The position numbers were made by a program, and so were the translations under genes. The notes under the pieces were generated by a model. That model saw only the letters and a list, made by a program, of their open reading frames with translations, did no database searches and was not told the origin of the DNA. Below, one piece after another: positions 8,213 to 64,000 of a stretch of DNA of 64,000 nucleotides (the stretch's first letter is position 1; each line of letters opens with the position of its first letter). Location of the stretch: the IMG/VR virus record IMGVR_UViG_3300025674_000014. One strand, 5' to 3'. Origin of the DNA: a virus. Its lineage: Duplodnaviria; Caudoviricetes.

Positions 8213-8308
8213 ATAACTAATTATAATTATATCCGTTTAATACAAGATGTTTTCAAAATCTTTGACGAATGTCCTTCAAATCTTAATAATTGAAACATAT
8301 ATTAATAT

Positions 8309-9709: not shown

Positions 9710-9717
9710 ATTAATAT

Positions 9718-34503: not shown

Positions 34504-35130
34504 GTGGAAAAGAAATTCAATAAGATTTACGAATCTTACGTATCTAGATTTACCAGAGGTGGTTTTCTTACTGGAGATTTAGTTAAAGTAAGAGATAACT
34601 ACAAATCTACTGAAGGTTATAAACAATTAAGCCCAGAGTATCAGGCCAAGTTAGATGATCTTTTAGCTAGTGATCTTAACTTGCGTGTTTCTGGTATTGA
34701 GAACAAATACCCTTCTAACCAACCTGGTAACACAGATAACTCAAGCGGAGAGTTTTCTATCACTGTATCACAAGAAACAGCTCCTGGTAGGTATGATGGT
34801 TTTTATCAATTTCCTGATGACATCTTCGAACCAGTAGATGTATATCCTAACAGAATGCCAGTACCAGACAGTATGGTACGTCCTAACGGCACTAAAATTG
34901 ACCCAGATACATTAGAGTATGAAGATGAAGAATCTTATGTTGGGTCTAATCCTCTTAAGTCTCAGGTTGAAGCAGGTTATTTACCTGATGCTGAAAAACA
35001 ACCTGCTATGGGTGATGATAGAGAATTACATAATGTCAATGCTAAGACAGATCAGTTTGGTGCACCTTCTCATGATGCTCAAGCAATCGGAGGCGGTAAC
35101 ATGCCTGACACTAGCATTTACTTAAAGTAA
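34504..35130 (+). CDS. Hypothetical late protein, candidate internal head protein
   Basis: MEKKFNKIYES N-terminus; TAAATA-N5-GTG. Confidence 0.6.
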   Translation: MEKKFNKIYESYVSRFTRGGFLTGDLVKVRDNYKSTEGYKQLSPEYQAKLDDLLASDLNLRVSGIENKYPSNQPGNTDNSSGEFSITVSQETAPGRYDGFYQFPDDIFEPVDVYPNRMPVPDSMVRPNGTKIDPDTLEYEDEESYVGSNPLKSQVEAGYLPDAEKQPAMGDDRELHNVNAKTDQFGAPSHDAQAIGGGNMPDTSIYLK

Positions 35131-36981: not shown

Positions 36982-36985
36982 ATCA

Positions 36986-37489
36986 TTATTTACTATCAGA
37001 CGAGCCAAATCCATCAGCCCCTCTGTTAGTATCAGACACTTCGTCAGCCCATTCAATAATAGGTTGCAATAATCTATAGACAACTATTTGTGCACAACCT
37101 TTACCTTTTTCGATTACAGCGTCAGTATCGGAAAAGTTATACAACTTAACACCTAGATCACCCCTGTATTGATTATCAATAACACCAAGATGAGGTTGTA
37201 AGCCATGTTTGAAACCTAGACCAGATCGAGGTTCAATTCGAAACCAATAACCAGGAGTAATATCTGCAAGAGTAAGACCGACAGGCACAACTGCACTTCC
37301 ACGAGCTGGAATAGTCGTATCTTCTACAGCAAACAAATCATAACCAGAATCACCAGTCATACATTCTTCATTGTTTACTGTAGGTAGTTTTGCATCATCA
37401 TGCGTCTTCTTAAACTTAACAGTCAATGCTTGTTTATCTACATTAACCCAGTTTGTATTTGATTCATATACATCACACATATCGCTCAT
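36986..37489 (-). CDS. dut: Trimeric dUTPase
   Basis: DSGYDL, PRSGL, GVIDNQYRG, RGADGFGSS. Confidence 0.97.
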   Translation of the reverse strand: MSDMCDVYESNTNWVNVDKQALTVKFKKTHDDAKLPTVNNEECMTGDSGYDLFAVEDTTIPARGSAVVPVGLTLADITPGYWFRIEPRSGLGFKHGLQPHLGVIDNQYRGDLGVKLYNFSDTDAVIEKGKGCAQIVVYRLLQPIIEWADEVSDTNRGADGFGSSDSK

Positions 37490-48232: not shown

Positions 48233-48241
48233 ATTGTATAT

Positions 48242-48439
48242 TTATCCTAATAGTAAATTATCTTTATTACTTTTGTCACTATAAACTTTATCCCAACATT
48301 CACCGCATAGTTGACCACAACCTTCTACATAAAAGTTACGATAATCTATATGAGTATGTTCTGTATAAGGCGTTTCAGCTTCACAAAGTACGCATTTGTC
48401 CATCTTGACACCGTCTGTTTCTGTAATGATATCAGTCAT
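48242..48439 (-). CDS. Small CxxC...CxxC zinc-binding phage protein
   Basis: DKCVLC...YVEGCGQLCGEC. Confidence 0.75.
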   Translation of the reverse strand: MTDIITETDGVKMDKCVLCEAETPYTEHTHIDYRNFYVEGCGQLCGECWDKVYSDKSNKDNLLLG

Positions 48440-48468: not shown

Positions 48469-49734
48469 CTACCCTCTTATAGTAATACCAACTAACCTAA
48501 CCTGTACTGGTGCAGGTATATTTGAACCTACGTGTATAGTTAATTCTTCCGTTCCTGTTACAAAAGAGTTTGGTATAATATGATAACTTGCATCATATCT
48601 ACGTCGCTGAGACCCATCTTTAATGTTAAACGGTAAAGAAGTTAACATCACATTAGAACCAGCAAGAGCATTTCTATAACCAAAAAACCCTGTAGCGTTA
48701 TCTTGATGTGCGCCGGTATACTGAAAGTGAAAATCTTGAATTTGACCCCAAGTTATATTAAAATTTTGAACTGCAGTTCTTACATCATTAATATCTAATG
48801 TTGCTGCTTTATAAGTTATTGGTTCATTTACACCTACCATCGAAACACCGTATCCTAAATAAGTTTGATAATCAGTAAATTTTTCTAAACCGGATGCTAA
48901 AGTAACATTATTACTTGTAATGTTAGGTGTAGGCTTGGCTAACACATTTAATAATGTTACCCCAAGATAGTTGGAACCACCCGGGTTTGAAGCTATAAAA
49001 TTATTACTTAAACCGGTAGGGGAGTTAGTTAAATTGCCATTATTATCAACATAAACAGCTTTTACACCAGCATTATTAAGCCCTGTAATTCTTAAAGATG
49101 ATACAGTTGGGTTAGTTGCATTTGATAAAATTTGATCAAAAGTAACATTATCAACATTACTACTAGCAATTCTACCAAGTACGCTATTTTCATTTACGCT
49201 AATACTATCGGGAGGAAGTTCATTAGTAGATGAATTACCTAATAAACTATTAGCAGATGAACTAGGTAAAACATCATATAATACTTCTCCTACTTTTAAT
49301 TGATTACCATCAATTAAAATAGAAACACCATCAACATCTACATTTAAATTATCGTTATTTAAAACTAAACCATCACCAATGTTTGCAGCTAATCCAATTT
49401 TATCATACCCTGCTTCAACTGATGCATTATCGTTTTCTAAAGATGTTGAACCTTGATAACCGGTTTTTCTTGCATATAAACCTGAACCTAATTTAAAATA
49501 GTCACCAGGCATTGGGTTTAAGGAAGCTACAGTATTAAAATCATTAACAGTACCTAGATATTTTACACCGGTAGCATTACCAATACCGCTTCCATCACCG
49601 ATAAAAAGTCTTTTAGTGTCGGTTGTAAACCCTAACTCACCTTCAGCTAGGGAAATTTGTTTTCGTTCATCATTAGTTCCTTTTCTAACTAATGAACGTA
49701 TAATAGTGTTATCTGTTATTTCTACGCTAGCCAT
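48469..49734 (-). CDS. Fibre-like virion protein with an Mtd_N-type N-terminal domain
   Basis: VRKGTNDER...LAEGELGFTTDTKRLFIGDG; VDGVSILIDGNQLKV fibre repeat. Confidence 0.75.
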   Translation of the reverse strand: MASVEITDNTIIRSLVRKGTNDERKQISLAEGELGFTTDTKRLFIGDGSGIGNATGVKYLGTVNDFNTVASLNPMPGDYFKLGSGLYARKTGYQGSTSLENDNASVEAGYDKIGLAANIGDGLVLNNDNLNVDVDGVSILIDGNQLKVGEVLYDVLPSSSANSLLGNSSTNELPPDSISVNENSVLGRIASSNVDNVTFDQILSNATNPTVSSLRITGLNNAGVKAVYVDNNGNLTNSPTGLSNNFIASNPGGSNYLGVTLLNVLAKPTPNITSNNVTLASGLEKFTDYQTYLGYGVSMVGVNEPITYKAATLDINDVRTAVQNFNITWGQIQDFHFQYTGAHQDNATGFFGYRNALAGSNVMLTSLPFNIKDGSQRRRYDASYHIIPNSFVTGTEELTIHVGSNIPAPVQVRLVGITIRG

Positions 49735-49735
49735 A

Positions 49736-51763
49736 TTATCTAAATTTTAAAAGTGTTGTACCTAAAACATCATCACCATTTATATCTTTCAACACGTGAT
49801 TAGTGTTAGCACTACCAGGTATGGTAATTAAATTTTGAGGATAATTTTGAGTGTTAGAATTATAAGCATTATAAAATGCACCATTTAATGCTCGTACATC
49901 AGGAGTACCTTCACCTCCATTAGGTGTAAATGTAGCGCCCGAACCAATACCTACCCCTTTTCTGTTAACAATACCATCGTTATACCCAGGAGCAAGTGAT
50001 GTAAATACCATGGTAGAATTACCTGATGAATAACTTACATCATATACAGAACTAAAATAATTATCCGTCTTTAAAGCATTTAACGTGGCATCTGCAACTT
50101 CATCTTCAGTTGAAGCAGATTGAATATCTACTTTTACTAAATTAGTTATATAACCCCTATGCTGTGAGTTTACAGATATATCAGGTTGAGTTGCTGAACC
50201 ATCTAAATCGTAGTAAATACAAGTTCTGTTACCTAAAGAATCATATACTAAAAAGTATTTACTATTTGATAAACTTGCTTTAGCAGGAAAATTAGTAATA
50301 CTATGACTTGCTTGTAATCCCCTACCACTTAAATATGCTGCTTCGGTACTTAATACCAGCCAATCATAAAAACTAGCTGAAACTTTACCGTTACTGCTAT
50401 CACCTGCACTCACACCGGAACCGCTTTTACTTTCGTAGGTATTAGCATTAGCGTAAGTAACAGCTGTATCTCCTATAGCATATGTTAATGTGCCTGGGCC
50501 TTGAGCATAATCTATATCATATGGTTCAGTAAAACCTTTTACTAAACATTGAATGTAAATATCATTACTATCAGTCCACGCATCAAAAATATTTTCTTCA
50601 TATGAATTTTGTATACCATTTATAGCTTCAACTACGTTAGCTTTTAAATCAGAACTTGTTGTTGAAAAATTACAACTTATTACTTCAGTTTCTGGATAAG
50701 ATTCAGAATATGCTAACAATGCAGTATCATCAGTAGGGTCTTGTATAAAAATAGAATAAATTACTCCATTACCCCCAGGTAATATAAAAGCTTTATTTTG
50801 GTACTCTCCTGCTGAAACTGGGTCTGTTGTAGTAAAATTACCTATTTTAAAATTAGCATATGCACCTTGATTGGATATACAACTTAAAGGTAGACCGGTT
50901 GTTAAAACTGTACCTGGAAAATCTTGTTTGTTTAAAAAGTAATAAGGATCAGTTAAAGTATCACCAGATAAGTTATTGACTATAGAAGATTGACCTAAAG
51001 CTCTTACAACAGTATTAGAACTGCTGCTACCTATACTTTGTATATTACCTTGAATTTTTGATGCATTTATTTTAGTGGTAGCATAACTATTAATACCTTC
51101 AGTAAGAAGATTTGCATCTGATGCATTTGATATAGGAAAGGTAGGACTAGCATCTAATTTACTAAACCCCGATGCTGACATAAACCCCGGGTTAGTGGCA
51201 TCTGCATTAGAGTGGTGCTGGGTTAAAGTAGCAGTATCTTGAAATCCTAAACCACCGTGTGAAATATTAGTTAATGTACCAACAGATAATTCATTAGAAC
51301 CATTAAAGGTAAGTAAAGTTGATGATTCGGTATCAGTAGCAATATTAATGTATAAAGTATCTGAAGCATCTAAAGCTAAACCAGCTCCTACTTTATCAGC
51401 AGATAATGTTGCAGCTCCAGGTACTAATTCAAGATGATTATTTGAATTATATCTTATAGTACTACCATCAACTCTTGATGATAAAAGATACCATGAATCA
51501 GTAGATGTATAATCTGATGCAGTTAAAGTATAATATAAATTGTTATCTAAAGTAGTATCACCTATAACTGAGTTAGTAGCTACTCTTGCTGTGCTAAAGG
51601 TTTTATTACCTACAATGTTTCCTCCTGTGGAAGTACCATCACCAGCAAATACACGCTTGGTGTCAATAGTGTAGCCTAATTCACCTTCATCTAGTATAAC
51701 GCGCTTTCTTTCCTGGTCAGTACCTCTACGAATTTTTATTTTTGCTGCATCTACCGTCGGCAT
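49736..51763 (-). CDS. Fibre-like virion protein with an Mtd_N-type N-terminal domain
   Basis: IKIRRGTDQER...LDEGELGYTIDTKRVFAGDG; two internal repeated modules. Confidence 0.75.
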   Translation of the reverse strand: MPTVDAAKIKIRRGTDQERKRVILDEGELGYTIDTKRVFAGDGTSTGGNIVGNKTFSTARVATNSVIGDTTLDNNLYYTLTASDYTSTDSWYLLSSRVDGSTIRYNSNNHLELVPGAATLSADKVGAGLALDASDTLYINIATDTESSTLLTFNGSNELSVGTLTNISHGGLGFQDTATLTQHHSNADATNPGFMSASGFSKLDASPTFPISNASDANLLTEGINSYATTKINASKIQGNIQSIGSSSSNTVVRALGQSSIVNNLSGDTLTDPYYFLNKQDFPGTVLTTGLPLSCISNQGAYANFKIGNFTTTDPVSAGEYQNKAFILPGGNGVIYSIFIQDPTDDTALLAYSESYPETEVISCNFSTTSSDLKANVVEAINGIQNSYEENIFDAWTDSNDIYIQCLVKGFTEPYDIDYAQGPGTLTYAIGDTAVTYANANTYESKSGSGVSAGDSSNGKVSASFYDWLVLSTEAAYLSGRGLQASHSITNFPAKASLSNSKYFLVYDSLGNRTCIYYDLDGSATQPDISVNSQHRGYITNLVKVDIQSASTEDEVADATLNALKTDNYFSSVYDVSYSSGNSTMVFTSLAPGYNDGIVNRKGVGIGSGATFTPNGGEGTPDVRALNGAFYNAYNSNTQNYPQNLITIPGSANTNHVLKDINGDDVLGTTLLKFR

Positions 51764-51781
51764 ATATGATTATTTATTAAA

Positions 51782-52009
51782 TTAGTATGAATCTAAAGAC
51801 TTAGTAAAGTCATATTCATCAATATATTTGCTGACAAGATCTTTTGCTATTCTGAAGGTTTTATTTATTTCGTCTTTATTTGAACTGAAAATATGAACCC
51901 CGAACAAAAAAGCCGGGGTTACTTTAGTGACAGCGGAGATATACTCTCCTTCATCTTCACTCTTTCTAATTAAATAAAAAATAATATCTTGATCATTAAT
52001 TTTAGACAT
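51782..52009 (-). CDS. Small hypothetical protein
   Basis: 75-aa ORF overlapping the upstream stop. Confidence 0.6.
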   Translation of the reverse strand: MSKINDQDIIFYLIRKSEDEGEYISAVTKVTPAFLFGVHIFSSNKDEINKTFRIAKDLVSKYIDEYDFTKSLDSY

Positions 52010-52760
52010 CTAACAATTCTTGTACTAAGATTTCCTCTGCATTCCCTTTTCTTTCTGTACCAGTTTCGCTAATTGCTTTTCCTATCATTTTATCATATTT
52101 ACCTTTTCTGTGATGTAACAATACCTTTTGTCCAGGTGTTATGTTAACATCAATACCCATATCAATAAAAGCTTCTACCTTTTCATTATTAACTTCAACA
52201 TTTACACCATAACCATTCATTACAAAAATATAACCTTCTTGAGGTAAAATAGGTTCTGGTGCAGCTGCTTCAACAGTTTGAGGTACACATGATGCACATG
52301 GCTGATAAGTCGGTGTTACTACTGGTGTGCAACAAGTTGGACTAGTCATCTTAACTGTTTCATAAAAATCAATTTGACAAGATTGACTACAAGTTGGTAA
52401 AGGTGTACTATAGCACGTTGTCGGTGATGGAGGTGTACATACCGGGCTTGGATCGCATTGAGCTAAAGGCTGTACGCAATTAGTACAGCAAACGGTGGTT
52501 TGAATAGGACGATAAGCATGATTGTGTTTTTCAGGCTTAGTAAAGTTTTTACTATATGGTGACACCTTATAACCATTACATGTGTTACTACCACAGCAAA
52601 CATTAGCAGTAGAACAGCTAGATTTTAGAACATTTTGAGGTTCTATGCAATAAACAGGAGCAGCAGAAGGAGTAGGTGAAGGAGTACAACATGAAATATA
52701 CCTACTTTTGCTTTTATTTCTTCTGAAAAAACGAGATAGCCATTTAAACATAACGAGCAT
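52002..52760 (-). CDS. Cys/Thr/Pro-rich protein with a small C-terminal beta-barrel-like domain
   Basis: 19 Cys by hand count; start may be ATG 52751 given TAAATA at 52760-52765. Confidence 0.7.
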   Translation of the reverse strand: MLVMFKWLSRFFRRNKSKSRYISCCTPSPTPSAAPVYCIEPQNVLKSSCSTANVCCGSNTCNGYKVSPYSKNFTKPEKHNHAYRPIQTTVCCTNCVQPLAQCDPSPVCTPPSPTTCYSTPLPTCSQSCQIDFYETVKMTSPTCCTPVVTPTYQPCASCVPQTVEAAAPEPILPQEGYIFVMNGYGVNVEVNNEKVEAFIDMGIDVNITPGQKVLLHHRKGKYDKMIGKAISETGTERKGNAEEILVQELLDV

Positions 52761-52784
52761 ATTTAAATGGCTGTATTTTAAAAA

Positions 52785-53066
52785 TCAAGATATATTAGTA
52801 ATAATACCATTAGTAATAGTTAATGTAATGGTACTATCATCAGGTGCTTTTACTTCTAATGATTGAGTAGAACCTCTTAAATCATTAATAATAAACTCGT
52901 CAGCACTTAAAGAAATAACACTAAGGTTAGAATAACCAGTACTTAATGTTTCTATACCTGATGTTGAATTGTATGTAGAATCAATAAGGCTACCAAACTG
53001 TTCAGCTGTAGGAACATCCCCAGTTTCGAAGTAACCTTTTAATGTGCTTATACTTTCTCTTGACAT
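52785..53066 (-). CDS. Small putative virion protein (LKGYFETGDVPTAEQF motif)
   Basis: N-terminal LKxxFxTGxxPTxxQFxxLIDS motif recalled from phage and tail-associated proteins; TAAATA-N5-ATG. Confidence 0.65.
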   Translation of the reverse strand: MSRESISTLKGYFETGDVPTAEQFGSLIDSTYNSTSGIETLSTGYSNLSVISLSADEFIINDLRGSTQSLEVKAPDDSTITLTITNGIITNIS

Positions 53067-53078
53067 ACTAATATTTAT

Positions 53079-53285
53079 TTAGCAGCAACAGCAGCAACTG
53101 TATGTTGCTCTTCCTGCAGTACTAGGGCAAGATGTAGCAGCACTACAAGTAGTGCAAGTCGTACAAGTCGTACCACAACAACAAGCAGCACCGCAGTTGT
53201 TAGGGTAAGTAGTTGATTCTTTTTTAGGTTTTTGGCTACTATATGATTCGCCACCGCAACAAGAGGAGTAATTACAATCGCTCAT
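53079..53285 (-). CDS. 68-aa cysteine-rich peptide (metallothionein-like composition)
   Basis: 16 Cys, C-terminal CCCCC; own TAAATA-N7-ATG. Confidence 0.7.
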   Translation of the reverse strand: MSDCNYSSCCGGESYSSQKPKKESTTYPNNCGAACCCGTTCTTCTTCSAATSCPSTAGRATYSCCCCC

Positions 53286-53295
53286 ATATATCTAT

Positions 53296-55071
53296 TTATT
53301 GAACCGGGGCTGGTTCTGCGGCAGGAGCGGCACCTCCTTCAGGCGGAACTTCGCCTCCAGTTACATCAGGCCCGCCTCCTTCTGGTGGAGGACCAAAATC
53401 AGGGGGTAGGCCTGAACCGCCACCTGCGGGTATTGCACCTCCACCAGCTTCCATTCCTTCTCCCCCTTCGGCTCCACCAGAGGCAATAGCCTCTCTCCAA
53501 TTAGGACCACTAGCTTCAATCTGAGCTAATTCCCAAGTGAGTTCTTTGTCCTTGCGTAAAAATTCTCTATTAGCTTTAACTTCAATATCAGACCAACCTA
53601 AGTACTTCTTCTGAGCCCAAGTATTAGAAACAAACTCACTATTAGTTAAACTTGACCAGTTATTAACTTTAAGCTCAAGCTTTTGCTGCTCTCGCATTTC
53701 AAAGAAGTTAGAAGGTACATTAAACTCTAAATCTAAATTTAGTTCTTTTAGATTATATTTCTCCCATATCTTCTTAAGTTTAAGATGAGTTATAAAGCCA
53801 TTCTTTAATCCTGCAGCAAACTGCATTTGCATACGAATAATAAAACGAGCAAACTTAAGTTCTTCTCTTAATATATCTGTACCATCCTGAAATGATTGCT
53901 CAGGGTTTAATCTAGTTACAGGTACTTTAAGTGACTTATATAACTTCTTCATGAAGTACATTAAGTCTTCCAACTCACCTAAATTCTGACCACCAGCTAA
54001 AGTTGTAACACTTGTACCTTCACTACCTGCTCTCTTTGCAAACCAAAAAGAGTCTAGCATTGACTGAGGTGAAAATTTCATTACCTGACCACTACTATCA
54101 GTATCATATGTATGTCTACTCCAATATTTTTGCTGAAGGTTTCTTAGATAACCTTCTGCTTTAGGAGGTGACATATTACCTACATCTACATTGAATACTA
54201 ACTTCTCAGGTGCTCTTACTAATCTATATATAACAATTGCATCTTCAATGAGAGATAACTGTCTATAAGCTCTTCTAGCATTCTCTAAGTAAGGTAATCT
54301 AATTGTCTTATTATCATTCCAGATACCAGAGTTAACATATGTAACCTGATTTTTGTCCATTGGAATGAGTTGCATGTCCTCAATCTTAGTAGGATTCTCT
54401 TCATTAAAGACAGGTTTTCTTAAAAGATAACCTTGAACAATACTATTTTGAATATTACCAAAAATTGGATCGATGAGTTCGGTGGGAATTTGTACTGTAC
54501 CTAAAATACCTTCTTTTGGGTGATCTTTATGAATAATATGTTCCCAATAAACTTCACCCTCTACAAGTAATTGTCTAAAATATTCCCAACCTTTATGCTC
54601 TAAATCAAAGTAACTAATGAACTTCTGAAATTCATCTTCTAATTGCTTTTGTTCATTAGGTTTAAACTCTCTATGTAAAAATTTTAATTTTACAATCTCA
54701 CCGTTAGCATCTTTGTTTATAATCTCATCACAAATTTCATCTAATGCATCTCCAACTTCAGCAAATGCTGCCATTACTCTATAATCACGAATTCTTGCTG
54801 CTTTATCTTGCTGAATATTCGCATACATGAACTCCTGAAAGCCCTTGTCCATTGCGATATCACCAACAGCTGAATTATTAATAGGTGTAGATGATGAAAT
54901 AGATTGACGCTGTAATGCGTCTTCACGACGACTACCTTCGCCTTGAAATAGCTTATACTTAGGGTTTACGTCATTTAACGTTTCGATAGTTTGATAAGAC
55001 TGATAAGGAAGTCTGCTTTGTACATACTTCATTAACGAACGTCCAAATGTATTTTTATTTCCTGTACCCAT
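53296..55071 (-). CDS. gp20: Portal vertex protein, T4 gp20-like
   Basis: RQLSLIEDAIVIYRLVRAPEKLVFNVDVGNM, FWFAKR, GTSVTTLAGGQNLGE, LYKSLKVPVTRL, ILREELKF. Confidence 0.97.
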   Translation of the reverse strand: MGTGNKNTFGRSLMKYVQSRLPYQSYQTIETLNDVNPKYKLFQGEGSRREDALQRQSISSSTPINNSAVGDIAMDKGFQEFMYANIQQDKAARIRDYRVMAAFAEVGDALDEICDEIINKDANGEIVKLKFLHREFKPNEQKQLEDEFQKFISYFDLEHKGWEYFRQLLVEGEVYWEHIIHKDHPKEGILGTVQIPTELIDPIFGNIQNSIVQGYLLRKPVFNEENPTKIEDMQLIPMDKNQVTYVNSGIWNDNKTIRLPYLENARRAYRQLSLIEDAIVIYRLVRAPEKLVFNVDVGNMSPPKAEGYLRNLQQKYWSRHTYDTDSSGQVMKFSPQSMLDSFWFAKRAGSEGTSVTTLAGGQNLGELEDLMYFMKKLYKSLKVPVTRLNPEQSFQDGTDILREELKFARFIIRMQMQFAAGLKNGFITHLKLKKIWEKYNLKELNLDLEFNVPSNFFEMREQQKLELKVNNWSSLTNSEFVSNTWAQKKYLGWSDIEVKANREFLRKDKELTWELAQIEASGPNWREAIASGGAEGGEGMEAGGGAIPAGGGSGLPPDFGPPPEGGGPDVTGGEVPPEGGAAPAAEPAPVQ

Positions 55072-55075
55072 TATA

Positions 55076-55792
55076 TTAGCATGATTGTGAACTTGACCTA
55101 GATAATGTTATACTCTTGGTTCTTGTTCTTGTAATTGTACTTGTTCTTGTTTGTGATTTAGTAACTGAAGGGGTAATACAAGATGTAGGTCGAGTACATG
55201 AATTAGTTCTAGTTACTGTATTAGTAGGGGTTTTTGTTCTTGTGCCTGTCGGTGTTGGTGTAGCATAATAGCTAACAGTTGGTGAAATTGATTTTGTTAA
55301 TGTTGGTGTAGGTGTTTGTGTTCTTGTTCTGGTTTGTGTTGGTGTTTGAGATCTTGTTCTAGTAGTTGTAGCTGATTGAGTAATAGTAGCAGTTGGTAAA
55401 GGTGTTGCACTTGGTGTCTCTGTTCTTGTTCTTGTAATAGTAGGTGTTTGAGATCTTGTTGCAGTACTTGTAGCACATTGTGTACCGGTTCTTGTTCTGG
55501 TAGTTGAATTAGTACATGTTATGGTAGGCGTAACTAATGGCGTACCAGTTCTTGTTCTTGTCTGAGTTGGTGTGCTTGTACCGGTTTGTGTAGATGTTCT
55601 TGAAAACGTATATGTAGGGGTATAAGTTTGTGAATTTGTCCTGGTTGTCGTAGGAGAAGGTGTATTACAAACTGTTGGGCTGCAAGTTACAGCTGGTATA
55701 CCATGCACATTGGCCTGAGCCCAATTAGAAGCTCTCTGAGGACCACCGTTAGCTTGTCTTATTAAATCTCTAAATGTAGGTATACCTGCCAC
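55076..55792 (-). CDS. Thr-rich low-complexity late protein
   Basis: About 79 of 238 residues are Thr (hand count), 7 Cys; TAAATA-N5-GTG. Confidence 0.7.
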   Translation of the reverse strand: MAGIPTFRDLIRQANGGPQRASNWAQANVHGIPAVTCSPTVCNTPSPTTTRTNSQTYTPTYTFSRTSTQTGTSTPTQTRTRTGTPLVTPTITCTNSTTRTRTGTQCATSTATRSQTPTITRTRTETPSATPLPTATITQSATTTRTRSQTPTQTRTRTQTPTPTLTKSISPTVSYYATPTPTGTRTKTPTNTVTRTNSCTRPTSCITPSVTKSQTRTSTITRTRTKSITLSRSSSQSC

Positions 55793-55813
55793 GATAATAT
55801 TTATGCTTATATG

Positions 55814-57175
55814 TTAAGGGTCAAATGAAGTAGTTGCAGGAAAACCAGTAGAACCTGCTTGCCAATACATTTTACCACCTATCATAGCAGTTAATGCTGA
55901 TTGTCTACTACTAATTACTTGCATATCATAACCTTTATAACCTATATCTATTTCATCTCCTTTATAAGCTGATAAATTAAACATATTAGCTACATTTGTT
56001 ATTTTATTAGCAACCCCTATAGTTCCATTACCTGCAAAATTAAGACCTATAACTTTCCATGCAGATAATGCGGGATTAGTAGAATTAAACAATGCACATA
56101 CAAAAGAACCTGAATCACCTCCTGAAGATGGAGATAAACTAGATGAATTACCTCTAAAAAATATTTGATCTTCAAATCCTAACGTCCCTACATTACCACC
56201 ATAGCTAACATTAGCTCCACCAATACTATAAGCACTTAACCTACAAGTAAAACCATAAGGATCACTACCAGGCCAACCTACAGGACCCTCAGTTCTACCA
56301 GATCTAAATACAGGAGCACCTAACTCGGTGGTTAATAATGAATTTATTTCTGAATCAGTAGCCCAATCCATAGGCTGACTTATATCTAATTGATATTGCT
56401 GCCAGTTAGTAGATGAACCCGATAAATTAAGAGTATGTGTACCAGATAATGCAAATGAACAAACATCAACTCTATTACCAGAAGATTTAAAAGGGTAAGC
56501 TTTTTTAACAGTACCCACAGTTAAAGGTTGCATTAACGATTGTGTAACTGTAAATTTATCATACGTAGATCTTTGATATACCGGGTATCTGTCATCACCA
56601 GGTGAAGAAGTCGTATCGTTAACTGAAAGATATGTCCAAAAAGTTAAACCACTATCGTTAGTAAAAGCTCCTCCTAAATCACCAGCTAAAGTATTTTTAC
56701 TTAAAACGTGATTGTTACTAACTCCTACAATAGTGTAATCTTCTAAATCAACAGCTAACCCACCCAATGTACCGGTATCAACTGAACTTCCTCCCCAGCC
56801 ATCCGGAGGTACAGTACCAACTGATATACCACCTACTAATGGTCTATGTTCTACTCTACTACCACTAACAGGCATTAACCAAGTACTTTGAGGAGTAGAT
56901 GGATCTGGTAAAGTATAACACCCGGTTGCTGATAAAGAAGGTACTTCCACAACATCCGTTGCATAAGTTACACCATCTACTTCAACTGAAGATGGAAATA
57001 AATCCTCTTGAGGTATATCACTTAAAGGTAACTTCTTTTCAACAAATAAAGTTAAACAAGGCTGTTGGGTTTCAACACCTTGAACTTCTTTTTTTGAAAC
57101 AACAACACCATTCCAGTTGACGTTAGAATCAAAAAGTTGATTTGCTTTTATAGTTAAATTATCAATATTACTCAT
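55814..57175 (-). CDS. Trypsin-like serine protease, Nal1-like
   Basis: Triad motifs SNNHVL, RVDVC, GGDSGS; GTLGG; N-terminal LTLFVEKKLP...VDGV..TDVVEV module. Confidence 0.85.
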   Translation of the reverse strand: MSNIDNLTIKANQLFDSNVNWNGVVVSKKEVQGVETQQPCLTLFVEKKLPLSDIPQEDLFPSSVEVDGVTYATDVVEVPSLSATGCYTLPDPSTPQSTWLMPVSGSRVEHRPLVGGISVGTVPPDGWGGSSVDTGTLGGLAVDLEDYTIVGVSNNHVLSKNTLAGDLGGAFTNDSGLTFWTYLSVNDTTSSPGDDRYPVYQRSTYDKFTVTQSLMQPLTVGTVKKAYPFKSSGNRVDVCSFALSGTHTLNLSGSSTNWQQYQLDISQPMDWATDSEINSLLTTELGAPVFRSGRTEGPVGWPGSDPYGFTCRLSAYSIGGANVSYGGNVGTLGFEDQIFFRGNSSSLSPSSGGDSGSFVCALFNSTNPALSAWKVIGLNFAGNGTIGVANKITNVANMFNLSAYKGDEIDIGYKGYDMQVISSRQSALTAMIGGKMYWQAGSTGFPATTSFDP

Positions 57176-60100
57176 CGTAGTATCTTACATAAATCTGATT
57201 AGCATGTGATGTAGGTGTCTTAGTTTTAGTAGGGGTTTGAGTTGCAGTTCTTGTAGGTGTTACCGTTGGTGTAGGAGTTAGAGTACCTGACTGAGTAGCA
57301 GTCCTGGTTTGAGTAGGGGTAGGTGTAACAGGTACGGTTGGTCTAGAATTTTTATAGGGGTGATTAGAAGGTAAACTAGAAACTAAACCCCACTTCCAAG
57401 CAAGATACCCCTCTGCTTTTTCAATAGTAGAAATATCAGTACCCGATGTACCAGGTAATTGACCAGCAGCAAAAAATTCAGCTAATCTACCATCTAGTTC
57501 CTGTGATGCTCTATTACGGAATAACCTAAGCTGTTGATTAGTTGAAATGCTATTTGTATAATCATTAACCGGGGTAAATGCATTAGAACCATTAACTCTA
57601 ACTGAAATTTGATTACCTGTTTTATTAAAATTAGATGCAATTATAGTATAATTATATCTAGTAACGCTTTGTAAATTCCATGATTGCAAGTTACCTATAG
57701 TATTAGAAATTCTACCAGAACTTAATCCATCTAAGTCTAATTCACCTGGCCAAGTATTAGAACTGCTAGCAGAACTTATTGCATAATCTCGTTTTGGTGA
57801 TTGATTTGTTTCGTAGGACCAGAAAGAATCTTGTGAATTATTAGTTGTATCGTATCTAAATACCCCTATAGCCCAATGGTTACCAGACGAAACCTGGCTA
57901 CTATAACCAGTACTTTGTAGGTACTCATTACTACCATTAAATGTAAATACATTAAGACTATTCTGGTTGTTAGTAGTAGTTGGTGTACCTCCTACCGTCA
58001 TTGTGTAAGTACCGGCTTTATCCGTTACAGACGTTAAAATACCTCCCGAGCTAGACCAACTTGATGTATCACTTGCATCAATCCAAGATACTAAATTACT
58101 TAAATCATCGGGCGCCCAATTAGCTCCAACTGTAGTGGGGGTAGGGGTTTGCGTACCTGTTCTAGTTTGGGTCGGTGTTTGGGTTTTAGTATTGGTTCTA
58201 GTTTGGGTGGGGGTCTGAGATCTAGTTTGAGTGTTTGTTCGTGAAGGTGTTTTAGTTTGAGTAGCTGCTGGTGTACCTGTACTGGTACTAGTGGGGGTAG
58301 GGGTTTGTGTACCTGTTCTAGTTTGAGTTTTAGTTCTGGTAGGTGTTACAGCAGGAGATGTAAAGTATATATTACCATTTCTAAACGTACCGTAATACCA
58401 AGTAGAAGAAGGAGCAAATTGTATTCTAAAAGTATCTCCCGTATAACCGTTATAAGAGTAACTAACAACAGATTTTATACTACTATCTAAGTAAACATAC
58501 ATTGTATCAAACGCAGGCCCACCAGTTAAATCTGTATCAAATTCAAAAACATCACCAGCAGAAGATTGGAAAGTAACCCCATTAGCACTTGGATGTGGAG
58601 CTGAACCGGTACCGGTTAAACTATTATTAAATGTACGTAAAGGTGTTTGGGTATTTGTTACTGTATTAGTTGGTGTGGTGGTTGGTGTTTGGGTTGTCGT
58701 TGGTGTTTGAGTTCTACTTCTGGTATTAGTAGGTGAAGGAGTTCTAGTTGATGTTTTAGTTGAGGTGCTTGTTGGTGATTGTGTAGGGGTAGGTGTGGTA
58801 GTTGGTGTCTGAGATGCGGTCCTTGTATTAGTAGGGGTAGGTGTTAACCCTGGTGTATTAGATGAAGTTTGTGTTGGTGTCTGTGTATTTGTATTTGTAG
58901 GTGTAGGTGATTGACTATTTGTTCTAGTTTGGGTAGGTGTTTGGGTTCTACTTCTAGTATTAGTGGGTGTTCTAGTAGCAGTAACACCTGGTGTATCAGT
59001 CGAACTTGGAGTCCTGGTAACTGTAGGTGTTACTGTAGGACTAACAGATGCTGTTGGTGTGTTGGTAGAAGTTGAAGTATTTGTAGGGGTAATAGTTGGT
59101 GTATTTGTTCTTGTTCTAGATTGTGTTGTAGTTCTTGTATTAGTAGGAGTTGGGGTAATAGGACCTAAACTAAATCTAGGACGTAAAACGTTATAAGTTG
59201 AAACTATACTATCTTGGCTTAAAGCTATACCGGAATATGTTTTAATAATAGCTATATCAGCATCTAAATTAGAGTTATTACCTGAAAACCATTTCATTGG
59301 TGTGCTATTAGTAATAATACCAGAAGGTCTATTAGCTTCTGATATTGCTCTTATAGCACCATCAACATAAATTCTTAGTTTTGTAGAATCAGCTACAAAT
59401 GCAACTTGATGCCAGCTATTATCATTATAAGTTAAACTCGTTCTAGCAAAAATTTCATTACCGTCATTGTCTTTTTCCCAAAAGTCTAATTTACCTGCAT
59501 TAACAGTGTCTCCTGAGCCTCTAACACCCATCATGAAATAACAAACATTAGCTTGATTATTATAATCGGTTACTATAGGCACTGTATATGAAGATGCTGA
59601 AGAACTTATGTTTGATCTAACTCTAATCCAAAATATAAAAGTATAAGGGTATCTATTTTGTATAGGACCAGCTTCGGTTCTAGGAATTGCAGTATTTTTA
59701 GCTAATTGATAACCACAAACCATACAATCTGTAGATCCATTTAAACAAAAATGATTTGACGGTCCAAAGTATGTCACATATTGAGGGGAACCACAAATGT
59801 ATAAATCATTATTTCTTCTTACATCACAAAATATATTACCGGAACCAGGGTAACTGTAAATGTTAGAAGCATCTACTTGCATAGTTAAATGACAGCAAGA
59901 ATAAGAAGCTTGAGTAGAAGTTCTTGTTTTAGTTGGGGTTGCTGTATAGGTGTTAGATGCAGTTCTAGTTGGGGTTGCAGTGGTAGCATTTCTAGTACGA
60001 GTACAAGTAGGTGTAGCTGTTGTAGCCATCCTAGTTGGTGTATAAGAAATTGTCGCAGTCTGTGAAGGTGTAAACGTTGGTGTTCTTGTTTGAGTTCTAG

Positions 60101-62174
60101 TTTCGGTAGGAGTATTACCTGGTGTAACCGATTGGGTAGATGTTCTAGTACTAGTGCGTGTTTGTGTTGGTGTTCTAGTCGGGGTCCTTGATCTGGTTTG
60201 AGTTGTTGTTCTTGTATTAGTTGGTGTTTGGGTTGCTGTTCTGGTATGGGTCCAGTTTCTGGTATTAGTTTGAGTGTTGGTAGGTGTTGTCGTAGGAGTG
60301 CTTGTAGAAGTTTTTGATAAAGTTATAGATTTTGTTTGAGTAGGTGTACCTGTAGGTGATGACCCGAAGGTAGGTGTTTGAGTCTGCGTAGGGGTTTGTG
60401 AAATAGATACTGTAATAGTTGCTGTATTAGTAGGTGTTCTAGTCTGGGTAGGGGTTTGAGTTACTTCAGGTAAATAAAATCTATGTTTTATGTTATTAAA
60501 ACTTTGCAATACTTGAGCAGTACTTAAAGCCTTTTCATAGACTTTAACGATAGCCATTTGTCCGTCAAAATTACCCGTACTATTAACAACGCTACCCAAT
60601 TTAGGGCTAACACTACTACTATAATCATACGTATCTGTAGTAGATAAATTAGTTACACCGTTTATATAAAGTCTAGAAGTTCCTGAAGACCTAACTAAAG
60701 CAAATTGATACCAGTAGCCGGTTTGTAAAGTAAAGCTTGTATCTTGTGTCCAACCTAAAGAAGGATTGTAATAAGAAAAGTAGTTATTATAAAAACCAAA
60801 AGTAAAATCTCCTGCAGTGTTATTGAAGTTAGATAAAAGTACAGATGAACCGTTATTTAAACTGTAAATTTTAGCCCATATAATATAACTAAAATCATTT
60901 GTACTTAAAGATGTTATATTGCTGCTGCTAATATCAATACTACTTCCCTGATCAAAAGTAAAGTTTTTAATAGAAGAGGGTGTTGAACCTGAATTATAAA
61001 AAACATCACCGCTTAGAGAACCGTTATTAGTATTTGAAGTTAAATCTGTCCATTGATTAGCTGTACCGGTGGACGAACTATTGTCGGCATCCAAATACAT
61101 TATTAACCCTTCAGTTAATGAACCTGTACTAGTACGGGTAATAGTATTTGTAGGTGTGGGGCTGTTGCTACTTGTTCTTGTTGATGTATGTGTGTTAGTT
61201 GGTGTCTTACTTGTTGTTGGTGTATTAGTAGATGTTACATCTGGTGTACCGGTTGGTGTGGCAGTATTAGTAGGGGTACGAGTAGCGGTTTCTGATGCAT
61301 TGGTAGTAGGTGTAATAGAGCTAGTTCTAGAAGGTGTTTTAGTATGAGTAACTTCAGGTGTCTGTGTTTGTGATGAAGTTTGTGTAGGTGTATAAGATGG
61401 TGAAGGAGTTTGGGTAGCTGTATTAGTGGTGGTTTGAGTTTGAGTAGAAGTATTAGTTGGGGTTTGAGTTTGAGTGCCTGTTTGTGTTCTTGTTAAAGTT
61501 TGAGAAGGTGTTGGTGTTAATGTTGTGGTATTAGTTGTAGTTGATGTAACCGTTACAGTGGGTGTAGGTGATGAACCTGTAGTAGCAGTAGATGTAACTG
61601 TACTTGTACTTGTTCTTGTAGCTGTATTTGTATTAGTTGGTGTTCTAGTCGGGGTGGGTGTATTGGTTGCAGTACCGGTAGGTGCTGGTGATGACCTTTC
61701 TGGTGTCTTTGTTGTATTAAGAGATTGAATATAAAAAGGGTAATCACTATTAATTGACGGAAATACATTATAGCCACCAGGACTGGTAATAAGAAACTTA
61801 AACTCACCTGTTGCAATACCAGATAAAGCTCCAAGACCCACTTGTACGGTATTTGATGTATAATCAAAAAATACATCACAACCTAAATCTAAAGCATTAT
61901 AAGCACTAAATGCAGGGTAAGTAGAAGATAATGATGGAATATCAGAGTAATAAGTTACACTACTTAAATTAACCGTTGAGAGAGAGTTGGGGATAAATGA
62001 AGATGGGTTAGAGCTGCTCAAATAAACCTGATAAGTCGAAGCTTTCCCTAAGCTGTTACCTGCACCGCCTCTAGTAAAAGGTATTTTAAAAACAAACGAT
62101 TTTTCATACTCACTGTAAATCAGTTTGTTAATTTGATTATTATTAATTAAAAGTTTTTGTCCAAATCTCTTCAT
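57168..62174 (-). CDS. 1668-aa modular virion adhesin/fibre with three LamG/ConA-like domains and Thr/Pro-rich linkers
   Basis: GLIMYLDA...QWTDL...KVYEKALS, LTMQVDAS...IIKTYS and WIDASD...AEGYLAWKWG domains separated by TPTQTRT-type repeats. Confidence 0.8.
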   Translation of the reverse strand: MKRFGQKLLINNNQINKLIYSEYEKSFVFKIPFTRGGAGNSLGKASTYQVYLSSSNPSSFIPNSLSTVNLSSVTYYSDIPSLSSTYPAFSAYNALDLGCDVFFDYTSNTVQVGLGALSGIATGEFKFLITSPGGYNVFPSINSDYPFYIQSLNTTKTPERSSPAPTGTATNTPTPTRTPTNTNTATRTSTSTVTSTATTGSSPTPTVTVTSTTTNTTTLTPTPSQTLTRTQTGTQTQTPTNTSTQTQTTTNTATQTPSPSYTPTQTSSQTQTPEVTHTKTPSRTSSITPTTNASETATRTPTNTATPTGTPDVTSTNTPTTSKTPTNTHTSTRTSSNSPTPTNTITRTSTGSLTEGLIMYLDADNSSSTGTANQWTDLTSNTNNGSLSGDVFYNSGSTPSSIKNFTFDQGSSIDISSSNITSLSTNDFSYIIWAKIYSLNNGSSVLLSNFNNTAGDFTFGFYNNYFSYYNPSLGWTQDTSFTLQTGYWYQFALVRSSGTSRLYINGVTNLSTTDTYDYSSSVSPKLGSVVNSTGNFDGQMAIVKVYEKALSTAQVLQSFNNIKHRFYLPEVTQTPTQTRTPTNTATITVSISQTPTQTQTPTFGSSPTGTPTQTKSITLSKTSTSTPTTTPTNTQTNTRNWTHTRTATQTPTNTRTTTQTRSRTPTRTPTQTRTSTRTSTQSVTPGNTPTETRTQTRTPTFTPSQTATISYTPTRMATTATPTCTRTRNATTATPTRTASNTYTATPTKTRTSTQASYSCCHLTMQVDASNIYSYPGSGNIFCDVRRNNDLYICGSPQYVTYFGPSNHFCLNGSTDCMVCGYQLAKNTAIPRTEAGPIQNRYPYTFIFWIRVRSNISSSASSYTVPIVTDYNNQANVCYFMMGVRGSGDTVNAGKLDFWEKDNDGNEIFARTSLTYNDNSWHQVAFVADSTKLRIYVDGAIRAISEANRPSGIITNSTPMKWFSGNNSNLDADIAIIKTYSGIALSQDSIVSTYNVLRPRFSLGPITPTPTNTRTTTQSRTRTNTPTITPTNTSTSTNTPTASVSPTVTPTVTRTPSSTDTPGVTATRTPTNTRSRTQTPTQTRTNSQSPTPTNTNTQTPTQTSSNTPGLTPTPTNTRTASQTPTTTPTPTQSPTSTSTKTSTRTPSPTNTRSRTQTPTTTQTPTTTPTNTVTNTQTPLRTFNNSLTGTGSAPHPSANGVTFQSSAGDVFEFDTDLTGGPAFDTMYVYLDSSIKSVVSYSYNGYTGDTFRIQFAPSSTWYYGTFRNGNIYFTSPAVTPTRTKTQTRTGTQTPTPTSTSTGTPAATQTKTPSRTNTQTRSQTPTQTRTNTKTQTPTQTRTGTQTPTPTTVGANWAPDDLSNLVSWIDASDTSSWSSSGGILTSVTDKAGTYTMTVGGTPTTTNNQNSLNVFTFNGSNEYLQSTGYSSQVSSGNHWAIGVFRYDTTNNSQDSFWSYETNQSPKRDYAISSASSSNTWPGELDLDGLSSGRISNTIGNLQSWNLQSVTRYNYTIIASNFNKTGNQISVRVNGSNAFTPVNDYTNSISTNQQLRLFRNRASQELDGRLAEFFAAGQLPGTSGTDISTIEKAEGYLAWKWGLVSSLPSNHPYKNSRPTVPVTPTPTQTRTATQSGTLTPTPTVTPTRTATQTPTKTKTPTSHANQIYVRYYDE

Positions 62175-62971
62175 TATTGTGAAAATATAAATGATTCAAT
62201 TTCTTGCTCTGAAGCAGAAACTGTAACTGTTTCGGTTATTGCTGATAATCCTGACAACTGAGTTCTCAATGTTGGGTAATTATCTAAAGTAAGCACTGTG
62301 CCCGTATTTTCAGTACCACTAACAGCATAGAAATTAGCATCAACTCTATAAATGTTACTAACGTTATTTTGAGCTGCAGGAAATATCCAACCTTTAATAG
62401 TGAATGTTGTATCAGCGGTAACTCGTGCTTTATCTGAAGCTTGCAACTCGGTTGGGTAAGACATGTTAATATTTCCATCCCAAAGTACTTCACTTCTTAT
62501 TTCTTGCATTTCAGATAATGCACCTAAGCCCGATGGAACTGGCCAGCTTATAATAATATAAGGGTTATTATAAGGTATGAAATTAGATAAGATTTGATCC
62601 ATATCTAATTGATATCTTGTTATAACAGAAAAATTAACTGTAATGTTTACTGGGGTAGGAGCATTATATTTGTTTGAATACTGGTCATTACTATAATAGA
62701 AACCGTTAACATCAGGTAACTTGTTAAAAACCCTATCATTATCTCTAGAAATACCTGCTACATTGATAGCAACTACCGGTAAAGTAATTGTTTTTGCTTT
62801 ATTGACTATATCATAAAGAACGCGCTGTTTAGGAGCGTATAGATATCTTACAAAAATCCTATCTTTTTGCTCTCTATTCTTATTATATCTACCAATAACT
62901 ATACTATCAAAAGCATTAGCAAATTGAATAATAAGGTCTTGTATTTCAAAGTATGTCGACTTCCAACGCAT
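62174..62971 (-). CDS. gp15: Tail terminator/sheath stabiliser, T4 gp15-like
   Basis: IIQFANAFDSI, VRYLYAPKQR, ITLPVVA, DMDQILSNFIPYNNP, FTIKGWIF. Confidence 0.88.
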   Translation of the reverse strand: MRWKSTYFEIQDLIIQFANAFDSIVIGRYNKNREQKDRIFVRYLYAPKQRVLYDIVNKAKTITLPVVAINVAGISRDNDRVFNKLPDVNGFYYSNDQYSNKYNAPTPVNITVNFSVITRYQLDMDQILSNFIPYNNPYIIISWPVPSGLGALSEMQEIRSEVLWDGNINMSYPTELQASDKARVTADTTFTIKGWIFPAAQNNVSNIYRVDANFYAVSGTENTGTVLTLDNYPTLRTQLSGLSAITETVTVSASEQEIESFIFSQ

Positions 62972-62984
62972 TCAAAATATTTAT

Positions 62985-64000
62985 TCATTTCAACCGCTCA
63001 ATAAAATGTTCTGGTAGTTTATCCTTATTCTTTAGCAATAATTTGCGTGCTTTACCATCAATTACATATGTAACCGAGTAATCTGCTTTAGATCTAGTGC
63101 ATCTACCGGTAGTCTGAATGAATGCACTTAATGTCTTTTGTTGATACCAATCAGGATCTAAATCAGCCATTTTCTTAATACGTTTATTACCAAGAGGCGG
63201 GAATGGGGTTTTGACAATAATTTGAAATCTACCTTTATCACCGTTCAAATCTGTACCAAACGTTAATGATGGTGATACTAATACGGTAGGTTTATCGGTA
63301 GAAAAATGTTCTTCTAATATCTTTTCATTATTAGCTGCTTCTTCTCTAAATAGAAACCTATCACCTTTAAGTTTCTTTTGTAGGTATTTACAAATATCTA
63401 ATGAATGGGTATGTATAATACCTTTCTCATCTGGGTGATTATCACATAATGCTTGACAGTATCTTGCTATCTTAGGTAAGTTTTGCTCCAAGTTACTATA
63501 ATTTAACTCAGGTTTAGTCATTAGATAGATAGGAGATTTAGCAGGGTCAAATGCTGATGGGGTCTCTATATATTTGTAACGTTTAATACCCAATGTTTTA
63601 GCATATGAAGCATGATCAGTTATAGTAGCTGACATTAGCAATATATTATCACCGTAATCAAACAAACTACTGGCTAGATTATTAACTTTCAATGGAGTGA
63701 AACTAACACCATTCTTAGCAAAATCGACAATATACTCGCATTTATGCCAAGTTTGTTCTACAGTTGATAGATTACCATGCAGATTACGTAGATACTTAAG
63801 TCTAGCTGCTTCTGGTTGCGATATTGTTATAATCTTATTGTTATTCTTACCCGTAAGGGATTCAATCGTCTCCGTAATATTGAAAATAAGATTAGTAAGC
63901 CATCTATATTGTACATCATACTTATCTGACTTAAGAACTGAATGCTCAACATTATTGAGATTAAGACGTGTATAATCAATATGTGCACTAAATCGTCTCA
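62985..64000 (-). CDS. DinG/XPD-family helicase, 5'-truncated by the window edge
   Basis: LLMSATI, KGIIHTHS, LVSPSLTFGTDL, QIIVKTPFP, QTTGRCTRSKADY; frame checked by hand and open to base 64000. Confidence 0.85.
   Translation of the reverse strand, partial: RRFSAHIDYTRLNLNNVEHSVLKSDKYDVQYRWLTNLIFNITETIESLTGKNNNKIITISQPEAARLKYLRNLHGNLSTVEQTWHKCEYIVDFAKNGVSFTPLKVNNLASSLFDYGDNILLMSATITDHASYAKTLGIKRYKYIETPSAFDPAKSPIYLMTKPELNYSNLEQNLPKIARYCQALCDNHPDEKGIIHTHSLDICKYLQKKLKGDRFLFREEAANNEKILEEHFSTDKPTVLVSPSLTFGTDLNGDKGRFQIIVKTPFPPLGNKRIKKMADLDPDWYQQKTLSAFIQTTGRCTRSKADYSVTYVIDGKARKLLLKNKDKLPEHFIERLK

Follow-up and report, generated by a model that had tools for sequence, protein, structure and literature searches.

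Sorting-signal systems such as LPXTG/sortase, PGF-CTERM/archaeosortase and the C-terminal domain (CTD)/PorU pair of the type IX secretion system (T9SS) are known, and in phages Peptidase_S74 and the phi29 gp12 auto-chaperone provide for proteolytic removal of a C-terminal element during fiber or appendage assembly. We describe here a phage locus that can be compared with both. It lies in IMG/VR record IMGVR_UViG_3300025674_000014, a 64,000-nucleotide stretch (the window) of low GC content (~32%) from an uncultured marine T4-like phage. A gene for a 1668-amino acid (aa) protein, here called X, which ends in a short tag, is followed by an overlapping gene for a serine protease resembling rice NAL1. 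Pairs of a tagged, putative display protein and a NAL1-like protease are apparently widespread in uncultured phages and undescribed.

Rice NAL1 has been proven experimentally to be a cage-forming protease that assembles as a trimer/hexamer; the cage is needed for activity and is stabilized by ATP, and the oligomers are joined by exchanged beta-strands (PMC12012508). The phage protease resembles NAL1 (PDB 7Y77, 8PMG, 8HAU; Pfam NAL1_N/Nal1_C) in its predicted two-domain fold over the whole length, in the order His-Asp-Ser of its catalytic residues and in a profile match (E 6e-5). It differs in sequence (identity 14-15%), in lacking the N-terminal strand-exchange extension of NAL1, in being coupled to a tagged partner, and in being often extended at the C-terminus by Pro/Thr (PT) linkers and binding domains.

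With the sorting-signal systems the phage pair shares a cargo, a Thr/Pro-rich spacer, a short C-terminal tag and an enzyme encoded alongside, tag and enzyme being gained and lost together. Unlike theirs, the phage tag comprises 7-13 residues and no transmembrane segment, the enzyme is a soluble serine protease of S1/NAL1 fold rather than a membrane cysteine transpeptidase, the genes belong to a phage structural operon, and covalent transfer is putative. The likeness to Peptidase_S74 and phi29 gp12 lies in the phage structural context and in the removal of a C-terminal element, which for X is a proposal; there a domain of ~150 aa on the same chain cleaves itself, whereas here the protease is separate and the tag has ~7-13 residues. 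Protein X itself recalls T4 Hoc, the Ig-like structural proteins of Caudovirales and the glycosylated Thr-rich tails of mycobacteriophages in its Ig-like anchor, lectin-type modules, Thr-rich tracts and head/neck gene setting, and its long Thr/Pro-rich tracts resemble those of mucin-like O-glycosylated virion proteins. No sequence homology to Hoc was found, and X stands apart from these proteins through its dedicated protease, its C-terminal tag and a strict (Thr-X)n alternation (X here being the intervening residue) that extends across ~780 residues.

A C-terminal tag that accompanies the protease gene

The elements of the pair in the window are:
57168-62174, minus strand: X, a putative modular display protein of 1668 aa
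57171-57209, minus strand: C-terminal tag SHANQIYVRYYDE, aa 1656-1668 of X, directly after a (Thr-X)n linker
55814-57175, minus strand: NAL1-fold serine protease, 453 aa

The ATG of the protease gene lies 8 nucleotides (nt) before the end of the X stop codon, positions 57168-57175 being common to both genes. Comparison with homologues from Tara, GOS and other metagenomes (loci cited by L numbers) gave the tag consensus N-[TQ]-[ILV]-[YF]-[VIT]-x-[YFW], followed by 1-5 residues and placed mostly straight after a PT linker. Examples are NQIYVRYYDE in the window and NQIYVSYE, NTIWVTYEE, NTVFVKYDVY and NTIYTIWVHIE. We scored a strict pattern, N-[TQ]-[ILV]-[YF]-x-x-[YFW], at 57 distinct protease loci spanning 25-98% protease identity. 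It occurs in 35 of the 57 distinct genes directly upstream of protease homologues (42 with a looser pattern) and in none of 804 control C-termini from other open reading frames (ORFs) of the same loci. The pattern was derived from the same data, so that 35/57 is descriptive; out of sample, two of four new loci carried the strict tag and three a tag-like sequence. The control rate together with the new loci shows the tag to be real. Its codons vary synonymously, and the distance from the upstream gene to the protease ranges from -58 to +24 nt with the motif kept, which argues against an artifact of a ribosome binding site or of the gene overlap.

The distribution of the tag follows that of the protease. 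Among distinct genes of the X family, 15 have both tag and protease, none has a tag without a protease, two have a protease without a tag, and 36 have neither. A minimal form of X of 154-213 aa comprises 7 tagged versus 60 untagged clusters. In other lineages and genomic contexts the tag sits on upstream proteins that are not homologous to X. On a gp15 tree, gains and losses of the protease number at least 7, of which at least 4 fall on supported branches. By these comparisons the short C-terminal tag appears to be co-inherited with a dedicated peptidase.

We also considered a split domain, in which the tag would supply a final strand that the N-terminal Ig-like domain lacks. This was rejected: untagged X paralogues stop one strand earlier with the sandwich complete, and an AlphaFold2 (AF2) model of minimal X leaves the tag hanging free of the beta-sandwich as a tail of low confidence.

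The NAL1-fold protease

An earlier note on this DNA, made without database searches, had called the protease trypsin-like, and correctly: His156, Asp237 and Ser355 (in GDSGS) are invariant in 28 aligned homologues reaching down to ~30% identity, and the fold matches that of rice NAL1. The catalytic codons are:
56708-56710, minus strand: His156
56465-56467, minus strand: Asp237
56111-56113, minus strand: Ser355

A profile search of the PDB with the protease homologues returned rice NAL1 as its only match (E 6e-5, positions 25-161). The AF2 model of the protease (mean predicted local confidence, pLDDT, 76.7; predicted TM-score, pTM, 0.83) was searched with Foldseek. The top 34 matches are all NAL1 over the full length (~440 columns, the N-domain included), with E down to 3.8e-14 and TM 0.54-0.72; SGPB and alpha-lytic protease come after them. 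In Pfam, NAL1_N and Nal1_C match weakly and below threshold, NAL1_N at 15.8 bits versus a cut-off of 27, and weakly in 11 of the 28 members. Pfam gave no match to the gp21-type Peptidase_S77, and relatives have a separate S77 gene downstream of the portal gene. Alignment and predicted structure together show an intact, active-looking catalytic triad on a NAL1 fold, the protease domain being of the chymotrypsin type (S1/PA clan). Six residues before Ser355 the side chain carries no charge, in keeping with an aromatic P1 residue in the substrate.

With 8026, 3065 and 486 representative clusters (50% identity) at E<=1e-3, 1e-10 and 1e-30, respectively, and with 245 IMG/VR stretches, the family is a large one. 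A tblastn search of GenBank phages with three family members found nothing but a weak match in the uncultured 484-kb phage LR756508. Extended members reach 1974 aa and without exception have the protease domain at the N-terminus. In L027 (1567-4059) and L028 (1487-3712) the protease, of 741-830 aa, is interrupted by an insertion of ~300-400 aa.

Modular organization of X

X consists of an Ig-like N-terminal domain, five (Thr-X)n linkers, three LamG-like modules, one small beta module and the C-terminal tag. Its domains, in order from the N-terminus, are:
61725-62174, minus strand: N-terminal domain, aa 1-150, conserved with L003, L013, L014, L024 and L008
60495-61094, minus strand: LamG module 1, aa ~361-560 (PF13385 Laminin_G_3 at aa 414-555, E 1.1e-23, 84.5 bits vs a cut-off of 27.6)
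59175-59894, minus strand: LamG-like module 2, aa ~761-1000, Cys-containing (sub-threshold Laminin_G_1/2 at aa 894-947, 20.9 vs 24)
58359-58604, minus strand: small beta-rich module, aa ~1191-1272, found by BLAST and also present in L014
57345-58154, minus strand: LamG-like module 3, aa ~1341-1610 (phrog_15511 only, E 2e-18)

The N-terminal domain is distantly related to the minimal X family (hhalign of the two alignments: probability 65%, E 5.8e-5), for which the AF2 model predicts a confident beta-sandwich at residues 30-161 with weak matches to Ig domains. About 780 of the 1668 residues fall in the five Thr-rich tracts. These alternate strictly, a further Thr standing at +2 for 76-85% of Thr versus 0-12% at +1 or +3. 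Most residues between the Thr are Pro, Gln, Arg or Asn, and with K+R 62 versus D+E 11 the tracts are basic. Recent slippage of DNA repeats was tried as an origin of the tracts and rejected: Tandem Repeats Finder (TRF) gives only short, weak arrays, which argues that the alternation is kept at the protein level.

The near relative G001, an IMG/VR fragment 94-97% identical across the region, offers a natural deletion. Its X has 1337 aa: residues ~1334-1655, with module 3, are gone, the last 13 residues are kept in frame, and both breakpoints fall within Thr-rich linkers. Module 3 of the window X is the C-terminal module of X in L003. These observations argue that modules are shuffled via the linkers, with both ends of the protein preserved. 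Other tagged proteins carry other binding modules, such as the RCC1 propellers of L008 and L054. A 723-aa protein (17% Thr) encoded in the baseplate/fiber block of the window (24515-26686, minus strand) has the phrog_15511 LamG-like module as well, and the module is thus common to appendage genes of one phage. No Peptidase_S74 (PF13884) domain was matched in X; in L003 the S74 fibers are separate genes. The tagged proteins L007:7870-9999, L008:7441-9993, L018:8767-9966 and L054:7578-9932 end in Y-x-C-x2-H-x2-4-M-x-G-x-I, recalling type-1 copper (cupredoxin) sites; these C-x2-H-x4-M endings gave no cupredoxin match in Pfam.

Glycosylation of the (Thr-X)n tracts is plausible, but nothing in the window supports it. 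Genes resembling glycosyltransferases (GT) flank the module in L009 (HtrL_YibB) and L149 (GT25 and HtrL) and lie a few kb from it in L005, L090 and L091, the types near the module in relatives being GT25, GT8, GT6 and HtrL_YibB. No glycosyltransferase was found in the Pfam-scanned ORFs of the window or of the adjacent stretch of G001.

Gene neighborhood and what is inherited together

The genes that surround the pair in the window are:
62985-63998, minus strand: helicase
62174-62971, minus strand: gp15-like tail sheath stabilizer/terminator (PF16724, E 1.4e-20, 74 bits vs cut-off 25; phrog_227)
55076-55792, minus strand: 238-aa protein, 33% Thr
53296-55071, minus strand: T4-type portal gp20 (PF07230, E 2.2e-106, 356.6 bits, above the gathering score)
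53079-53285, minus strand: 68-aa protein with 16 Cys
52785-53066, minus strand: 93-aa protein, conserved in L003, L014 and L024
52002-52760, minus strand: 252-aa protein with 19 Cys
51782-52009: 75-aa ORF, followed by two Mtd_N-type fiber genes
49736-51763 (675 aa) and 48469-49734, minus strand: the two fiber genes

The gene for gp15 is the first of its operon, and its stop overlaps the start of X by 1 nt. The portal is ~30% identical to portals of cyanophages, pelagiphage HTVC008M and Aeromonas phage Aeh1. The earlier note had grouped X, the protease, the 238-aa protein and the two Cys-rich proteins as one module. The five genes, the 8-nt overlap and the sequence strings that it quoted are all present, and the module genes are all on the minus strand.

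We surveyed 89 loci with protease homologues. The order helicase-gp15-X-protease-(Y)-portal is kept down to 28% protease identity, with X ranging from 157 to 2075 aa. Portal neighborhoods of relatives speak against co-occurrence of the five genes as one unit and in this respect partly refute the earlier note. L005 has gp15-X-protease-portal, with a minimal, tagged X, and no Thr-rich or Cys-rich genes beside them, and most relatives in which X and protease are kept lack the Cys-rich genes (L005, L015, L021, L027). The nearest subclade (L001, L010-L012, L003 and L014) keeps all five genes in the same order; the 238-aa gene is confined to a subclade and the 68-aa gene to a narrower one. In L090 and L091, which have gp15-X-portal and no protease, X is minimal and untagged. 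In the distant phages L007-L009 the pair of tagged protein and protease lies far from the portal, and the protease directly follows one or two large Thr/Pro-rich proteins. In L003 (58% protease identity) two Peptidase_S74 fiber genes and a gene for a 307-aa protein are inserted between X and the protease (6263-9988). With accessory genes that vary and a pair that stays constant, the five genes are not a unit and the pair is. Judged by gene order and content, the conserved functional unit is the predicted X-protease pair, together with the 238-aa protein. Nor does the module stand in for T4 gp16-19: the order gp15-X-portal-gp13-gp21-gp23 is ancestral in the clade and reflects a lineage-wide rearrangement. 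The idea of a protease-linked appendage survives in part and in spirit, through the co-variation of tag and protease and the late operon; the five-gene unit and the shared motifs (see below) do not.

The 238-aa protein begins with a peptide of ~45 aa (MAGIPTFRDLIR…SNWA); the remaining ~190 aa are (Thr-X)n, without a globular domain. An N-terminal PxFRDLxR motif is found in 12 distinct proteins among 2145 ORFs, 11 of the 12 encoded directly beside the protease gene (position -1, +1 or +2), including proteins of L054 and L059, where the protease is only ~29% identical to that of the window. This recurrence beside distant proteases argues that the 238-aa protein is a second component of the module. 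Proteins of this type are encoded at:
Window, 55658-55792, minus strand: the N-terminal peptide of the 238-aa protein
L054: 7578-9932 and 11241-11615
L059: 8490-9932, 11242-12255 and 12291-13943

In the form M-x-x-[IVP]-P-x-F-R-[DN]-[LI]-x-R, the N-terminus is common to otherwise unrelated proteins on both sides of protease genes. The peptide possibly serves as a further tag, N-terminal in this case, for docking or anchoring.

The Cys-rich proteins present a different picture. Positional and partial sequence homologues of the 68-aa protein are found only in L001, L010-12, L003 and L014; in the protein, as in L003:13915-14241 and L014:14038-14283, the start (MS[DE]CNY..CGG.S.SSQ) and a cluster of Cys at the C-terminus are conserved. 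Its gene occupies the place of the T4 small prohead-core genes. The 252-aa protein has a basic N-terminus, a middle rich in Cys, Pro and Thr (19 Cys) and a conserved C-terminal beta domain; its L024 homologue has no Cys at all. The strings that had been taken as motifs shared among the non-enzymatic members (TCSPTVCNTP, CCTPSPTP, TTCTTC) reflect low-complexity composition, not homology, since BLAST finds no similarity between these proteins and the L024 homologue does without Cys. The disulfide crosslinking suggested for them would be pure conjecture.

Transcription and translation signals

Matches to a late-promoter-like motif, ATAAATA, on the minus strand near the module are:
62978-62984, minus strand: 13 nt upstream of the gp15 start
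55798-55804, minus strand: upstream of the 238-aa gene
53293-53299, minus strand: upstream of the 68-aa gene
53072-53078, minus strand: upstream of the 93-aa gene
51771-51777, minus strand: upstream of the 675-aa (first) fiber gene
48239-48245, minus strand

Six of the 14 minus-strand ATAAATA sites of the window sit 12-14 nt upstream of gene starts, in the stretch from 47.8 to 63 kb, a spacing implying late transcripts with almost no leader. Of the full T4 late promoter TATAAATA the window has fewer copies than expected (8 versus 19), and gene starts are marked not by it but by the shorter ATAAATA at -12 to -14. No ATAAATA lies upstream of X or of the protease, each of which overlaps the preceding gene. 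The overlaps within gp15-X-protease, with the motif only before gp15, argue for one late, translationally coupled unit, and overlaps of -8, -4 and -1 nt across loci likewise indicate translational coupling. Motif and overlaps support the assignment of the module genes to predicted late-type structural operons.

Other features of the window

The genes recognized in the window include those for baseplate wedge and hub, two clamp-loader genes, a holin, gp15 and the gp20 portal. The region has no nucleotide match among GenBank phages (megablast), no NCBIfam model matches any module protein, and a search for tRNAs found none. The clamp-loader genes are adjacent, gp44-type paralogues (35111-36028 and 36049-37083, minus strand; phrog_168, E 1e-74 and 1e-68). 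A Nol-like carbamoyltransferase (18583-20310, plus strand; phrog_1601, E 5e-112) is an auxiliary gene, and a 767-aa protein with an N-terminal PKD domain (29830-32133, minus strand) is encoded next to the baseplate wedge genes.

Proposed function and alternatives

We propose, with a probability of roughly 0.45, that X is a virion-displayed adhesin whose tag is recognized and clipped by the coupled NAL1-fold protease as a maturation step. X would be expressed late and probably displayed on the virion, where its conserved Ig-like N-terminal domain, encoded by an ancestral gene between gp15 and portal, would most likely anchor it near the neck. The exchangeable lectin-like modules, LamG here and RCC1 propellers elsewhere, would sit on (Thr-X)n spacers that resist proteases and are perhaps glycosylated. 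The 7-residue C-terminal strand N-Q-I-Y-V-R-Y would be the recognition element of the protease, lying extended in the active-site cleft as a substrate strand from P4 to P3', and the protease would clip the tag during appendage assembly, probably after the invariant Tyr/Phe. Seven conserved positions, with x the least conserved, fit a P4-P3' substrate and favor clipping. The virion location of X, the contact between tag and protease, and the cleavage are what we infer from these patterns.

Several observations weigh against this proposal. Binding and cleavage of the tag by the protease are themselves deduced, and a complex prediction of the protease with X residues 1639-1668 scored 0.37 versus 0.31 for the best control, which is evidence neither way. 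Only four phylogenetically independent pairs are available, too few to reach significance (p 0.25), in which the tag follows the protease 2-3 times and never goes the opposite way. A recognizable tag is absent from about one-quarter to one-third of upstream genes (L014, L019, L034, L066, L080, L151). In L003 the tag is internal and followed by a LamG module, and three genes separate X from the protease, which is awkward for simple C-terminal trimming. Many proteases bear their own C-terminal PT linker and binding domains, for example leucine-rich repeat (LRR)-like ones, and so resemble a displayed enzyme more than an internal maturation enzyme. The family is found in no cultured phage.

Some of these points are better accommodated if the tag is left uncut and serves for docking, a reading that is less likely but the chief rival. 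The tag would add a strand non-covalently to the protease oligomer (NAL1 oligomers are joined by exchanged beta-strands; PMC12012508), and X would mount an active protease on a flexible, protease-resistant virion tether. Host surface proteins (S-layer or glycoprotein coat) would be cut at adsorption while LamG binds glycans. In other lineages the protease is itself joined by PT linkers to LRR-like or other binding domains, always as the N-terminal part, as expected of a displayed module; its neighbors are all Thr/Pro-rich, a composition expected to resist a nearby protease; the minimal, tagged X and protease of L005 would make sense as anchor plus enzyme; and the internal tag of L003 and the tandem tags found in L030 and L039 are compatible. 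If tethering were sufficient, X-protease fusions would be expected, but none occurs among the 150 top family members, and with few exceptions the tag stands within 1-5 residues of the chain end. The complex prediction favors docking no more than it does clipping.

The position of the tag at the extreme C-terminus would also suit a sortase-like ligation, in which the protease cuts within the tag and the acyl intermediate is then taken up by an amine of a virion protein, of another X or of the 238-aa protein, so that tethers become covalently fixed or crosslinked into a fibrous layer. The arrangement of cargo, Thr/Pro spacer, short C-terminal tag and adjoining peptidase resembles that of sorting-signal systems, and an X already anchored at its N-terminus would, if attached a second time, form loops or crosslinks of the sort guessed at in the earlier note. 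Yet the case is pure analogy: no precedent was found for transpeptidation by NAL1 or an S1-type protease, and the tag has no transmembrane helix or other feature of a sorting signal. We regard ligation as quite improbable. There is a similarly slim chance of its fullest form, a new kind of virion 'sortase', in which the NAL1-fold protease would cleave the 7-residue tag and, as plug-and-play decoration, join interchangeable modules, lectins or propellers carried on (Thr-X)n tethers, covalently to the virion or to one another.

Little credence can be given to a five-gene, protease-matured, glycosylated and disulfide-crosslinked neck or head appendage replacing gp16-19. The genes are contiguous and driven by the late motif, their order is kept in the nearest subclade, and GT-like genes adjoin the module in L009 and L149. 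But most relatives with X and protease do without the Cys-rich genes, the Cys of the 252-aa protein are not kept (L024), the tagged-protein/protease pair also occurs away from the portal, the window and the adjacent stretch of G001 yielded no glycosyltransferase in their Pfam-scanned ORFs, and gp15-X-portal is the ancestral order of the clade. Finally, it is very doubtful that the tag is a coincidence, namely the last beta-strand of diverse domains or a product of overlap or ribosome binding site constraint, with the protease a host-takeover or anti-defense enzyme unrelated to X: some C-termini (GxIxIKDY) do resemble the final strand of a folded domain and the -8 overlap does constrain the last 2-3 codons, but the tag mostly follows a disordered linker and is a free tail in the model, the motif is kept while codons and distances vary, no control C-terminus matches, and untagged X paralogues end one strand earlier.

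Implications

The tag and protease, which keep company across hundreds of uncultured phages, point to a system, so far undescribed, by which appendages of the virion surface are built. A large protease family, found in no cultured phage, can now be defined, along with a rule at the level of sequence, namely that the neighboring gene ends in a heptad tag; the plant NAL1 protease family gains a phage branch with a candidate recognition sequence. If the protease does ligate or mount cargo, it would be a possible tool for protein display or ligation. For the phages themselves, the comparisons suggest that marine T4-like phages swap whole binding modules by recombination inside (Thr-X)n linkers, leaving anchor and tag intact. 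Such swapping would bear on host range, on adhesion to marine particles or mucus, and on the annotation of the giant Thr-rich 'hypothetical' ORFs of viromes.

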